43,003 nt of DNA from a virus (IMGVR_UViG_641522624_000003), one strand, 5' to 3'; numbered from the stretch's first letter, positions 6,178 through 10,040 are shown. The notes: a model not told the origin generated them from the sequence alone. A program made the numbers and translations.

Positions 6178-6333
6178 TCACTCACCTGAATTTCTTTCCA
6201 GCCAGCGACGCGCGTCAGATTCGGTTTTAAACGTTTTACTTCTGGTATACGTCATGGCGGTGAATGTGCCGTCCTGGTTGGGGAACACACCACATACCAG
6301 AGATTCGCTGTTGCCAAGATCGATAGTATCCAT
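6178..6333 (-). CDS. ydfA: YdfA-like protein (51 aa from internal Met MDTIDL)
   Basis: ORF track 6178..6438 (-) opens with TTG; the internal ATG gives a 51-aa product matching the size of ydfA. It is the first gene of the leftward operon downstream of a DicA operator copy. Confidence 0.55.
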   Translation of the reverse strand: MDTIDLGNSESLVCGVFPNQDGTFTAMTYTRSKTFKTESDARRWLERNSGE

Positions 6334-6448
6334 GCTGACCTCATTACCCCTTAACGCCGGGTAGCGGAACTGTTTGCTGAGAACACCGTGCGGTGTCTTG
6401 ATGGGTGGTAATTTAGTTTTCTCATGAATGTTGGTCAAGCATTTTTAA

Positions 6449-6461
6449 TGAGAAAACTCAA
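6449..6461. promoter_or_regulatory. Palindromic operator-like site TGAGAAAACTCAA (copy 1), upstream of the dicB-operon genes
   Basis: 13-bp element with inverted halves TGAG/CTCA around AAAA; an identical copy lies in the dicA-dicC intergenic region. Confidence 0.45.
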
Positions 6462-6522
6462 TATTTAATGCAAAATAAAGCCAATACATTGAAATGTAAG
6501 GCTTTAAAATTTGTGAAGGGGG

Positions 6523-6930
6523 TTACTGATGTTTGTTACGTTTGCGAGCTTCTAGTAGCTCGGTGAATAGGCGATTAAAATTCTCAACGCGGGCACGGAG
6601 TTCGCTGATTTGTGCTTGCTGCTCTGATTTTGGAAGTGCGCGATACAATCGCAACATCTCCAACTCATCTTCCGATAAGTCTAAGGCGCTGTTGAGTGCT
6701 ACTGGTGGATCTGGTGTTTTATCCTCGTCACCAAACAGTATCCAAGTTGGTGAACATTGCAATACCTCAGCCAGGCGATGCAAATTTTGCCCGCGCGGGG
6801 CTGTATGGTCGCTTTCCCATAGTGAAATTGATGAGCCAGATACGCCAGCGGCTTTGCTTAAATCGTTTTGACTTAAACCAACCTGTTTGCGTCTTTCTCT
6901 AATTCGTTGACCTAAAGTTTTCTCGTTCAT
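6523..6930 (-). CDS. dicA: DicA-like HTH (XRE-family) repressor
   Basis: 135-aa ORF with N-terminal HTH (LGQRIRERRKQVGLSQNDLSKAAGVSGSSISLWE) and C-terminal segment LQCSPTWILFGDEDK recalled from DicA; divergent from a DicC-like gene. Confidence 0.8.
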   Translation of the reverse strand: MNEKTLGQRIRERRKQVGLSQNDLSKAAGVSGSSISLWESDHTAPRGQNLHRLAEVLQCSPTWILFGDEDKTPDPPVALNSALDLSEDELEMLRLYRALPKSEQQAQISELRARVENFNRLFTELLEARKRNKHQ

Positions 6931-6981
6931 ATTTAGATATCTTAATAACCCTTGACTTGAGATTCCTTGAATGATTACTAT

Positions 6982-6994
6982 TGAGAAAACTCAA
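6982..6994. promoter_or_regulatory. Palindromic operator-like site TGAGAAAACTCAA (copy 2), in the dicA-dicC divergent promoter region
   Basis: Exact second copy of the 13-bp element, overlapping the 5' region of the dicC-like gene. Confidence 0.45.
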
Positions 6995-7007
6995 CTTTGG
7001 AGGGGTG

Positions 7008-7235
7008 ATGTTTAAATCAGACGTAATTAATTTTTATGGGACGAAAGCCAAAGTAGCGAAAGCTGCTGGTGTTGATCCATCTGCTGTTTCTCAATGGGGG
7101 GAACTGGTTCCTGAAGGTCGCGCGATGCGCCTGCAAGAGGCATCCGGCGGGGAACTTCAGTACGACCCCAAAGTTTATGACGAATATCGTAAGGCAAAGC
7201 GGGCGGGGCGGTTGAACAATGAAAATCACCCCTGA
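7008..7235 (+). CDS. dicC: DicC-like Cro-type regulator
   Basis: Product contains LVPEGRAMRLQEASGGELQYDPKVYDEYRKAKRAGRLNNEN, recalled as DicC-like; start taken at the internal ATG of track ORF 6981..7235. Confidence 0.7.
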   Translation: MFKSDVINFYGTKAKVAKAAGVDPSAVSQWGELVPEGRAMRLQEASGGELQYDPKVYDEYRKAKRAGRLNNENHP

Positions 7236-7770
7236 ACAGGTTTGTGAGGCTCTGGATGCCTGGGTATGTCGACCAGGAATGACACAGGAGCAAGCGACGA
7301 TATTAATCACGGAAGCATTCTGGGCTCTGAAAGAACGCCCGAACATCGATGTTCAACGCGTCACGTTTAATGATGGCGAGGTTGATCAACGGGCGCTGGG
7401 CGTTAACCGGGTGAAGATATTCGAACGCTGGAAAGCTATCGACACCAGGGATAAGCGGAAAAAATTCACGGCGCTGATTCCGGCAATTATGGAGGCTATC
7501 CGAATTAGTGATTTCAGGTTGTATCGTGAGATCAGTGATGGAAAAAGCATTACGTACATGATCGCCGGATTAAACAAAGAATATGGCGATGTGGTGGAGT
7601 CCGGGCTGCTTTTTGCGGATCCAGCTGTTGTGGAACGTGAGACTGACGAGCTTATAGAAAAAGCTATTGCTTTCAAGCATGCGTATCGTCAGCAATATCA
7701 ATATTACTTTGCAGATAAACAAATGTCTGCCAGGGGTTTGTATGAGTATCGATGCACTACGATGGGCTAA
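7219..7770 (+). CDS. YdaT-like phage regulatory protein (putative)
   Basis: 183-aa ORF after the cro-like gene; segment KIFERW...ALIPAIMEAI resembles my recollection of YdaT-family proteins; a CII-type role is possible by position. Confidence 0.4.
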   Translation: MKITPEQVCEALDAWVCRPGMTQEQATILITEAFWALKERPNIDVQRVTFNDGEVDQRALGVNRVKIFERWKAIDTRDKRKKFTALIPAIMEAIRISDFRLYREISDGKSITYMIAGLNKEYGDVVESGLLFADPAVVERETDELIEKAIAFKHAYRQQYQYYFADKQMSARGLYEYRCTTMG

Positions 7771-8782
7771 AAAGGTGAAAACCGGCAGTTCATCCAGTAA
7801 GTCTGTATTGACCTGGCTTGCTGATATGTGCGGTGCCGATTTGTGTGCATACCCGTCTGTATCTGCACTGGCAGAAGTAACGGAACTAAACAAAAAGACT
7901 GTGCAGGACAGCTTACGACACCTGATGGAGATTGGGTTAATTGTTGATACCGGTGAGAGAAAAGGCAGAACAAAGCAAATTGTGGTGTACCGACTTATCG
8001 GTGTAGAAGAAAGTGTTGCCGAGCCTGAATACACCCAAAAACGGGAGTCTTTAAAGGTGGGTAAAATTGGTGCTGTTAATAAAAACAGTACCGAAAATGG
8101 TTATGTTTCAGCACAAAACAGACCCAAAAACGGAACTCTTAGCTGCATGGAAAATAACCAAAGACACCCAAATTTTCCATCAAAGACACCCAAAAACGGA
8201 TCACGGAACCCAAAGGAACCCAAAGATCTAAACCCCACACATAACGCACGCGAGAGTGCTCCGACCAGTGAGCAGGAAGTTTTGTCGTTACAGGCAGCAC
8301 CCCTTGTATTCCTGGATGGCCTGAGCGAACCCATCGGAAAATTTCCGATGACCGATAGCTGGTATCCGTCACGGGATTTTCGACGACGGGCTGCGTTGTG
8401 GGGGATGGCTTTGCCGGAGACAGAATTTACACCTGCTGAACTTGCCGCCTTCCGGGACTACTGGGCAGCGGAGGGGAAAGTGTTTACTCAGATTCAGTGG
8501 GAGCAGAAATTCGCCCGTCACGTAAATCACGTCAGGGCGCAGGTTAAACCAGTCAGCAAGGGGGTAAACCATGCAGCAGCACCAGGTGGCACCGCATCAC
8601 GGGCAGTTCAGGAAATTCGGGCAGCACGTGAGCAGTGGGAACGTGAAAACGGATTTATCAGCGACGGAAACGGTCTGGAAGCTGTGGGAACTCATGGGGG
8701 AGGTTTATTCGAACCGCTGGACCCAGAAGAACGGGGCCGCACCTTCGAAGCTCTGGATTGCACAGATTGGCGCGATGACTGA
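7742..8782 (+). CDS. Replication initiator (O-like): N-terminal HTH domain, C-terminal DnaT-like domain
   Basis: Start at MSIDALRWAKK within track ORF 7667..8782; HTH segment SVSALAEVTELNKKTVQDSLRHLMEIGLI; iteron-like repeats lie inside the gene; C-terminal region FTPAELAAFRDYWAAEGKVF resembles DnaT-like domains. Confidence 0.6.
   Translation: MSIDALRWAKKVKTGSSSSKSVLTWLADMCGADLCAYPSVSALAEVTELNKKTVQDSLRHLMEIGLIVDTGERKGRTKQIVVYRLIGVEESVAEPEYTQKRESLKVGKIGAVNKNSTENGYVSAQNRPKNGTLSCMENNQRHPNFPSKTPKNGSRNPKEPKDLNPTHNARESAPTSEQEVLSLQAAPLVFLDGLSEPIGKFPMTDSWYPSRDFRRRAALWGMALPETEFTPAELAAFRDYWAAEGKVFTQIQWEQKFARHVNHVRAQVKPVSKGVNHAAAPGGTASRAVQEIRAAREQWERENGFISDGNGLEAVGTHGGGLFEPLDPEERGRTFEALDCTDWRDD
8030..8226. 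repeat. Iteron-like repeats (ACCCAAA core, about 6 copies; tandem GAACCCAAAG x2), putative replication origin inside the initiator gene
   Basis: Direct repeats at about 8031-8044, 8120-8134, 8162-8172, 8183-8200, 8206-8215 and 8216-8225. Confidence 0.5.
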
Positions 8783-9236
8783 GCAGCAAATCCGACAGGT
8801 CTGCCGCCAGTGCATGGACCGCTGCCGGGCGGGTGAAACATGGCCTCCGGACCTGGCTGAGTTTGTGGCGCTGATTTCAGAAAGCGGGGCCAATCCATTT
8901 GGCCTGACGGTGGATGCTGTGATGGAGGAGTACCGCCGCTGGCGTGATGAGTCCTGGCGATATGACGGAAGCGACAAATATCCGTGGCCTCAGCCTGTGC
9001 TGTACCACATCTGCCTCGAAATGCGTACCAGAGGGATTGAGCGCCAGATGACGCAGGGTGAGTTAAAACGACTTGCGGAACGGCAACTGACGAAATGGGC
9101 AAAGCATGTTGGTAACGGGATGAGTGTTCCGCCAGTGCGACGACAACTGGAAGGGGCGAAACACCCGCAAGGGCCAACGCCAATTGAACGGCTGAAACAG
9201 GAATACGAACGCCGGAAGGCAGCTGGTTTTATTTGA
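8571..9236 (+). CDS. Replication protein P-like (helicase-loader family, lambda P C-terminal-like)
   Basis: 221-aa ORF with strong SD (AAGGGGG) 5 nt before ATG 8571; C-terminal region (PPDLAEFVAL...YPWPQPVLYHIC...MTQGELKRLAERQL) parallels recalled lambda P motifs; no Walker A motif. Confidence 0.5.
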   Translation: MQQHQVAPHHGQFRKFGQHVSSGNVKTDLSATETVWKLWELMGEVYSNRWTQKNGAAPSKLWIAQIGAMTEQQIRQVCRQCMDRCRAGETWPPDLAEFVALISESGANPFGLTVDAVMEEYRRWRDESWRYDGSDKYPWPQPVLYHICLEMRTRGIERQMTQGELKRLAERQLTKWAKHVGNGMSVPPVRRQLEGAKHPQGPTPIERLKQEYERRKAAGFI

Positions 9237-9269
9237 ATCTGAGAAACGATTTTGTCGGAGGAAATTTTA

Positions 9270-10040
9270 ATGGAAACCGTATTTGACGCACTGAAAGCAA
9301 TGGGAAAAACCACATCGGTAGAACTGGCCGCGCGACTTGATATCAGTCGTGAAGAGGTTCTCAACGAGCTGTGGGAACTCAAAAGAAATGGCGTCGTTGA
9401 TAAAACTGGTCACACCTGGTTTCTGGCTGGCGAAGGTGAATCCCGGGTAACCGAAGAGCGGCCAGTAAAATCTGAAGCACAGGATATGCTGACCGGAGAG
9501 GTCGAACAAAAAGTTACCGCAGACATGATGATTGAGTTTATCGGTCAGGATGGTGCTAAAACGTGTGAGGAACTGGCGGGTAAGTTCGGCGTCAGTACTC
9601 GCAAGGTTGCCTCCACGCTGGCGGTGGTAACCGCAATGGGGCGGCTGGCACGCGTTAATCAGAACGGTAAATTTCGTTACTGCATGCCGGGCGATAATTT
9701 ACCAGCAGAGCCGAAAGCCGCGCTGGTAACGGAAAGTGATGGTAAGGCCTTTCCTCAGCCAGCAGGTGCTGCGTTACCAGTCCGGGAAGCCGCAACACAG
9801 GAAGAAATTAAAACAGAAACTGTGGCGGACATTGTGCAGCCGTTGCCATCGTTTACCGAAACGCAAGCAGATGAGCTGATTTTTCCGTCCCTTCGCAGGG
9901 CAAACCTGGCGCTGCGCAGGGCGAAAAGTGATGTTCAGAGGTGGGAGCGAGTCTGCGCCGCGCTGCGGGAGCTGAACAAGCACCGGGATATTGTTCGACA
10001 GATTACTGATTCTTCCCGCCGTGTTGTATCGGAAAAGTGA
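9270..10040 (+). CDS. Hypothetical phage protein with two winged-helix-like segments
   Basis: Track ORF 9252..10040; ATG 9270 is preceded by a GGAGG SD; two HTH-like stretches ([29 protein letters not shown] and [30 protein letters not shown]). Confidence 0.45.

Follow-up and report, generated by a model that had tools for sequence, protein, structure and literature searches.

The viral sequence IMGVR_UViG_641522624_000003, a stretch of 43,003 nucleotides (nt) that is called the window here in its full length, includes the early-right operon of a lambda-like Escherichia coli prophage with a gene for a replication initiator. Sequence comparisons indicate that an array of short direct repeats within this gene (approximately 8027-8234) is very likely a lambda-type prophage replication origin, in an initiator family other than O. 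Iteron origins embedded in phage initiator genes are a known class; the refinements here are the set of six sites, designated A to F, and a second tandem element that follows them. An initial annotation of the window had proposed a putative origin analogous to ori-lambda. That proposal gains computational support from constraint at the DNA level, the confinement of the repeats to the linker of the initiator, their association with its N-terminal domain (N-domain) and the modularity of the locus.

The repeat cluster is real and non-random. When both strands are searched, the heptamer ACCCAAA occurs eight times in the 43-kb window, and six of these copies, all on the + strand, lie at 8033-8224 (positions 8033, 8122, 8166, 8188, 8208 and 8218). 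Six copies of one 7-mer per 200 nt is the maximum for the entire window. Among 500 dinucleotide-preserving shuffles the non-trivial 7-mer maximum was 3 in 473 and 4 in 15, and never more than 4, and the repeat cluster first noticed within the initiator gene thus holds up against every one of the 500. The exact 12-mer ACCCAAAAACGG is present in three copies window-wide, at 8033, 8122 and 8188, preceded by C, G and C, respectively, and the 10-mer GAACCCAAAG forms a tandem duplicate (8206-8215 and 8216-8225); both had been described correctly. The earlier count of about six copies agrees with the six clustered occurrences of ACCCAAA, but it mixed two repeat classes and missed the degenerate sites B and C. 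The ACCCAAA copies are not equivalent: three belong to full iterons, one to a variant site, and two to the other tandem element at 8206-8225. The array corresponds to the codons for amino acids (aa) 96-164 of the initiator and lies, as had been stated, in the linker between the helix-turn-helix (winged-helix) domain and the DnaT-like domain. Three frames are used by the copies in the window: ACC CAA AAA CGG (T-Q-K-R) at site A, CCC AAA AAC GG (P-K-N-G) at sites D and F, and, in the third frame, CAC CCA AAT TTT CC (H-P-N-F-P) at site E.

Evidence for a function of the repeats in DNA comes from relatives of the initiator. Phage records and a single genome for each species were used to collect relatives of the N-domain, giving 61 distinct loci from Escherichia, Kluyvera, Enterobacter, Scandinavium, Edwardsiella, Plesiomonas, Serratia, Yersinia, Providencia, Proteus, Vibrio, Acinetobacter, Marinomonas, Pseudoalteromonas and other genera. 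In these loci the motif CC[AG]AAAACGG has 129 matches on the + (coding) strand of the linkers (25.7 kb in total). It has none in the other parts of the genes (29 kb), and in the flanks (254 kb) it has none on the + strand and three on the - strand. The matches fall into the three reading frames as 97/25/7, with PKNG, QKR and others among the readings. In x[KE]NG motifs proline is encoded by CCC in 77 of 77 cases (background 22%), lysine always by AAA, glutamate by GAA in all but one case, and asparagine by AAC in 99 of 104 (background 45%). In xQKR motifs the rare codon CGG is used in 24 of 27 cases, against a background of 14%. The codon statistics of the two motifs point to one DNA word read in two frames, and together the frame and synonymous-site statistics rule out a purely peptide-level repeat; the constraint is on the DNA and not on the peptide. 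Flanking positions, including AA at -7 and -6, extend the iteron unit to about 17-20 base pairs (bp), with the consensus AAyrnwCCCrAAAACGGra. A reading of CCCAAAA as a programmed frameshift or slippery site has been rejected, since the word is found in every reading frame and also in arrays outside coding sequence.

The individual sites have been compared at two evolutionary distances. The site alignment consisted of the window and nine loci from seven other genera (the genera aligned being Escherichia, Kluyvera, Enterobacter, Scandinavium, Edwardsiella, Plesiomonas, Serratia and Yersinia), and polymorphism was scored in 80 related, near-identical E. coli prophage contigs. A position weight matrix (PWM) was built from the other genera only, leaving out the window; with a score threshold of 8, its only matches in the 43-kb window were sites A, D, F and C. 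Six positional sites are kept across the aligned loci. Cross-genus identity of the core columns over the 10 loci is 100% for F, 86% for A, 83% for D and 71% for E, compared with 51% for the non-site linker and 44% for third codon positions of the N-domain. Site B is the positional homologue of ACACCCAAAAACGGTGCTGTTAA in the Edwardsiella, Plesiomonas and Serratia loci. The position of site E holds a variant in all 10 aligned loci; the Edwardsiella group has CCCAATTTTGG there and the Enterobacter group CCGTTTTTCC. Among the 80 E. coli contigs core A is invariant apart from one contig that diverges from 8042 onward, and core F has no point substitutions, one contig being divergent from 8150 onward. 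Site C has been weakened to AAAATGG, and a T>C change at 8098 restores AAAACGG in about 21 of the 80 contigs.

The tandem copies of GAACCCAAAG represent a separate, family-wide repeat class and are not iterons. The family form of this element, GAAYCWNYCA, is found in 2-3 tandem copies with a period of 10-12 bp on the 3' side of the last iteron in 57 of the 61 loci. It reaches 3.58 copies per kb on the + strand in linkers, compared with 0.03-0.05 per kb elsewhere, and one synonymous position within it is A in 46 of 46 cases. The copy in the window, GAACCCAAAG, has a 3-nt deletion relative to a Kluyvera locus (L010), and the tail of the array (8200-8232) is 78% identical across genera. The element may be an unwinding, second-site or single-stranded DNA (ssDNA) contact element; it is a candidate by analogy, because it sits where lambda has its A+T-rich tract and iteron plasmids have their 13-mers. 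Two GATC (Dam) sites, at 8199-8202 and 8225-8228, bracket the tandem 10-mers and are kept in the aligned relatives (GGGATCCGG and AAAGATCTAAA).

The protein encoded around the array has the parts of an initiator. The AlphaFold2 (AF2) model of the N-domain contains four helices and a beta-hairpin wing, with a predicted local distance difference test score (pLDDT) of about 70-86. The Pfam family HTH_36 (PF13730) scores 20.8 bits on the window protein, below its gathering cut-off of 25 bits. Relatives with 38-75% N-domain identity score 30-47 bits, above the gathering score, and a precomputed PF13730 match exists on an 89%-identical protein. Foldseek searches with the N-domain gave generic winged-helix matches, including N-domains of plasmid Rep/initiator proteins, with weak E-values of 0.02-0.08. 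The N-domain is presumed to be the reader of the iterons. The linker has about 105 residues, and its length varies among relatives, with many indels. The DnaT-like domain is matched by Pfam PF17948 at aa 201-267 (61.5 bits, cut-off 25, E 6.5e-17) and by DnaT chains in PDB at E 1.6e-19 to 9e-16 (6aep/4ou6 at about 1e-18 to 1e-19). Its model (pLDDT 75-88) superimposes on 6aeq_A in Foldseek with a template modelling (TM) score of 0.90 and a root-mean-square deviation of 1.1 Å. A C-terminal tail after this domain completes the initiator. Phage_rep_O (PF04492) had no match on the window initiator at E<=0.01, while lambda O scored 123 bits with the same library. BLASTP of the N-domain against lambda O found no homology, and an hhalign comparison of the N-domain alignment with lambda O gave a probability of 7% and E 0.005, in the HTH-wing region only.

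The association between the repeats and the N-domain has also been examined in the reverse direction. A search for two copies of CCCAAAAACGG spaced 6-30 nt apart retrieved at least 120 viral loci; among the matches listed, the N-domain was encoded directly upstream on the same strand in 107 of the 115 with enough upstream DNA. One exception (L187, about 2779-2811) encodes a true Phage_rep_O initiator (109.6 bits) with copies of CCCAAAAACGG in its linker, which are read TQKR, PKNG and TQKR and connect the word to the O family. Four other exceptions (L236, L176, L230 and L250) are non-coding 24-bp tandem arrays in another element. In L236, an unrelated viral contig, the array at 6210-6360 consists of four copies of ATCCCAAAAACGGGTACATTCAAA with variants and an inverted CCGTTTTTGG, upstream of an AAA+ ATPase gene. 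The Acinetobacter relatives (L019-L056) have a one-base variant of the word, CCCAACAACGG, within the iteron AACAGTCCCAACAACGGAAC. The variant iteron of this subfamily is accompanied by a different helix sequence (DTEMDRKTVLKII vs VTELNKKTVQDSL), and the variant may reflect co-variation of initiator and site.

The modularity of the locus is seen in its homology breakpoints. Homology to Edwardsiella phage EPP-1 covers 7735-8224 and then ends. Rac-SA53 and Actinobacillus phage pPE4 are homologous to the window from 8222 and 8226, respectively, through the loader gene to about 10,000. These opposed breakpoints, which fall at the conserved peptide KDLNPTH, indicate two separately exchangeable modules, the first made up of the N-domain and the array and the second of the DnaT domain, the tail and the loader. 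The N-domain is joined to different C-terminal partners (DnaT, Phg_2220_C or no known domain), and the DnaT domain is also paired with other N-domains. The array and the N-domain are shared by otherwise unrelated phages of lambdoid, phiV10-like, Acinetobacter and Vibrio types. Of 5,426 complete E. coli genomes, 906 carry the segment 7990-8260 with an identity of >=90%, in up to three copies each. Carriers include O157:H7 and enteropathogenic E. coli (EPEC) strains as well as E2348/69; the annotation of the gene there goes no further than 'DnaT-like ssDNA-binding domain-containing protein'. A circular E. coli record of 8,461 bp (NZ_CP148379.1) contains repressor, cro-like, YdaT-like, initiator (99.4%) and P-like genes and a few others. 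It has no recognisable rep gene besides the window-type initiator, which is suggestive of a lambda-dv-like replicon.

A mechanism can be proposed by analogy with lambda O/P and iteron plasmids, from which binding, unwinding, loader recruitment and origin firing are all extrapolated. The N-terminal winged-helix domain would bind co-oriented iterons of about 17-20 bp in the DNA that encodes its own disordered linker, with A, D and F as strong sites and B, C and E as weaker or variant ones. The resulting nucleoprotein complex would destabilise adjoining DNA, the candidates being 8050-8090 and the tandem 10-mers at 8206-8225. The DnaT-like domain and the C-terminal tail would then retain the strand so opened and attract the P-like loader with host DnaB bound to it, and rightward early transcription would traverse the site, as at ori-lambda.

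Several observations weigh against an active origin of this kind. No distinct AT-rich unwinding element was found beside the array, and nothing AT-rich lies downstream of site F. The least stable stretch of the array, 8050-8090, has a GC content of 33-37% and reaches only about the 97th percentile of the window; moreover, the decayed sites B and C make it up, and the relatives are not AT-rich there. Core D, a strong site, is polymorphic in 14 of the 80 E. coli contigs (8132 G>A in 12 and 8131 C>T in two). The spacings of the sites in the window (26, 30, 33, 44 and 22 bp) are not consistently helical repeats. Spacing modes in the family are 24, 33 and 17-18 bp, and a strict 10.5-bp helical phasing has been rejected, as neither set supports it. 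Literature searches on the motif, the origin of this initiator type, Eru-type Shiga toxin (Stx) phage replication regions and Rac oriJ yielded no description of the array. The initiator gene is 98.8% identical to that of the PPompW prophages of Shiga toxin-producing E. coli (STEC) O145:H28, where it is annotated as 'phage replication protein'. PPompW-type prophages have been described as defective, yet they excise and circularise upon induction (PMC8112680). With a defect of the PPompW type, the window's own copy may no longer fire. In addition, the circular record NZ_CP148379.1 could be an assembly artefact.

Other explanations of the repeats have been weighed against an origin. The repeats could be initiator sites that serve mainly in control, through roadblock autoregulation or through titration and handcuffing of copy number, with the origin elsewhere in the prophage. 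Plasmid iterons act in both initiation and control, and this speaks for such a role, as does the want of a convincing AT-rich unwinding element adjoining the array. The array also lies upstream of the C-terminal half and the loader gene, whose transcription a bound protein could block. However, no other cluster of the iteron word was found in the window, and no DnaA boxes or IHF sites were found near the replication genes. In addition, the array and the N-domain travel together between unrelated phages, as would be expected of a self-contained unit of origin and reader, and the same design in lambda is an origin (PMC7466680). A role mainly in control, with initiation elsewhere, is considered unlikely on this evidence.

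Still less probable is that the repeats are a low-complexity linker peptide of PKNG type, selected or tolerated at the level of the protein alone. Repetitive linkers are frequent in multidomain proteins, and many relatives have their copies in one frame as neat P[KE]NG repeats (phiV10, Vibrio phage Her and Acinetobacter LZ35). A peptide would not account for near-invariant synonymous positions against a mixed background, for a DNA word that is also read as QKR and in a third frame, all three frames being used in the window, for the 24-bp tandem array of the word in non-coding DNA (L236), or for a core F that is 100% identical in DNA across seven genera. The repeats may also be regarded as sites for another protein (host factor, repressor or terminase), as slippage-prone sequence or as a recombination linker at a module boundary. 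The mosaic junction at the right edge of the array and the perfect 24-bp tandem copies of some relatives, which indicate recent slippage duplication, are in keeping with this. The junction, however, falls after the array and not inside it, and conservation of single sites across genera is unexpected for neutral products of slippage. The repeats are associated with one N-domain family irrespective of the remaining phage genome, and the neighbouring genes are for replication and not for packaging. The chance that any of these accounts is the correct one appears very small, and a replication origin is the preferred reading of the array.

The putative origin resembles known systems in different respects. 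In lambda, four O-bound iterons lie in the middle of gene O, with an A+T-rich tract and the P gene after them, and in P27 and 933W, both Stx phages, the origins contain six iterons (PMC7466680). As with ori-lambda, the initiator gene of the window carries direct repeats of about 18-20 bp in its middle part, between an N-terminal DNA-binding domain and a C-terminal part, with a P-family loader gene immediately 3'. The repeat centre CAAAACG is common to both, the N-domain and origin form a module exchangeable separately from the C-terminal half and loader, and iteron copy number differs between relatives, as it does among lambda and the Stx phages. In contrast, the window initiator does not match Phage_rep_O, its C-terminal half is a DnaT-like ssDNA-binding domain, and its iterons do not have the extended dyad of lambda (TCCCTCAAAACGAGGGA in lambda vs ACCCAAAAACGG in the window). 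There is also no clear A+T-rich tract after the last iteron, the tandem 10-12-mer element taking its place. The ydaU-ydaV region of Rac-SA53 and phage pPE4 are 84-87% identical to the window from the DnaT-like domain through the downstream genes, but their N-terminal halves are unrelated (DUF1376 in YdaU, no assigned domain in pPE4). No copies of CCCAAAAACGG and no comparable repeat array were found in the loci of Rac YdaU and pPE4. The unrelated N-domain and the missing array suggest that the origin-specificity module differs there.

Iteron plasmids of the RK2, F and pPS10 type are reported to have 13-mers in the unwinding element that are contacted as ssDNA by Rep (PMC4081077). They share with the window a winged-helix initiator, co-oriented iterons and adjoining short tandem repeats. 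In the window, unlike these plasmids, the array is part of the initiator's own coding sequence, the protein joins one winged-helix domain to a DnaT-like domain, and the tandem element is not A+T-rich and is only a candidate for unwinding. Origins embedded in genes for initiators or replisome organisers are also generally known from P22 (gene 18) and SPP1 (oriL in gene 38). They are alike in having initiator sites within the initiator's own gene and differ in the protein families and repeat sequences.

The gene order around the initiator is that of a lambda-like early region (Table 1). The start of the initiator gene overlaps the 3' end of the YdaT/CII-like gene by 29 nt (7742-7770), and the least stable DNA near the initiator gene is a low-GC stretch just upstream of it, at 7684-7724. 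The protein encoded directly after the initiator matches Phage_lambda_P (PF06992) with 59.3 bits (cut-off 26). The ATG at 8775 is most likely its start; it overlaps the initiator stop codon (ATGACTGA), an arrangement also found in ydaU/ydaV (Rac-SA53). The PPompW record has a shorter loader coding sequence, equivalent to 8814-9236, and the mechanical open reading frame (ORF) begins at 8571. A scan of 6400-9400 for promoters and terminators gave only one relevant hit, at 6952-6981, a match of pR type lying upstream of the cro-like gene, and none inside the repeat array. Small ORFs at 8067-8231 (+), 8101-8334 (-) and 8139-8372 (-) are unsupported as genes and have been set aside as by-products of the repeat composition.

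Table 1. Repeat sites, protein domains and genes of the initiator region, numbered from the first nucleotide of the window
Feature	Position	Strand	Remarks
cI-type repressor gene	6523-6930	-	
Cro-type gene	6981-7235		
YdaT/CII-like gene	7219-7770		
Replication initiator gene, 346 aa	7742-8782	+	ORF, translation, Pfam, PHROG 'replication initiation protein' families
N-terminal winged-helix DNA-binding domain, aa 1-89	7742-8008	+	AF2 model; HTH_36 in relatives
Predicted disordered linker, aa 90-195	8009-8326	+	pLDDT <50; holds the whole repeat array
Iteron A, GAATACACCCAAAAACGGGA	8027-8046	+	PWM 30.8; core begins at codon position 2
Site B, decayed iteron, core GGTAAAATTGG, 6/11 to consensus	8053-8072	+	Below PWM threshold
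Site C, weak iteron, AAACAGTACCGAAAATGGTT	8083-8102	+	PWM 15.9; positionally conserved
Iteron D, AAACAGACCCAAAAACGGAA	8116-8135	+	PWM 29.1; core begins at codon position 1
Site E, variant, AAAGACACCCAAATTTTCCA (CCCAAATTTTC)	8160-8179	+	Positional homology
Iteron F, AAAGACACCCAAAAACGGAT	8182-8201	+	PWM 26.6; P-K-N-G
Tandem GAACCCAAAG x2, altered form of the second repeat class	8206-8225	+	After the last iteron
Mosaic module junction	8222-8226		Left: N-domain and array; right: DnaT-like domain, tail, loader
DnaT-like ssDNA-binding domain, aa 196-268	8327-8545	+	Pfam, PDB, Foldseek
Lambda-P-like helicase loader gene	8775-9236	+	Pfam Phage_lambda_P, PHROG 'P-like helicase loader'
DUF1627 gene	After loader gene		

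A wider interpretation is more speculative and, on balance, doubtful. The CCCrAAAACGG iteron and the GAAYCWNYCA element would together form one deeply conserved, portable bipartite origin cassette. Such a cassette may be common to the winged-helix initiators of many gammaproteobacterial phage lineages, including some of the true O family, and an intergenic form may be used by other mobile elements. Its second element may be a sequence-specific site of unwinding or ssDNA contact, corresponding in phages to the 13-mers known from oriC and iteron plasmids. If the cassette exists in this form, the near-identity of the cores could allow co-resident prophages and satellites to cross-activate, titrate or hijack one another's initiators.

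These results leave the general picture of the working of such origins as it was. The array is a clean natural case of a DNA-level function overprinted on a disordered protein linker, and the iteron word together with the N-domain provides a signature for the annotation of origins in phages of Enterobacterales, Vibrio, Acinetobacter and marine genera. Overall, the position of the putative origin and the target of its initiator give a testable map of prophage amplification after induction, which is relevant to clusters of prophages that carry effectors or toxins.

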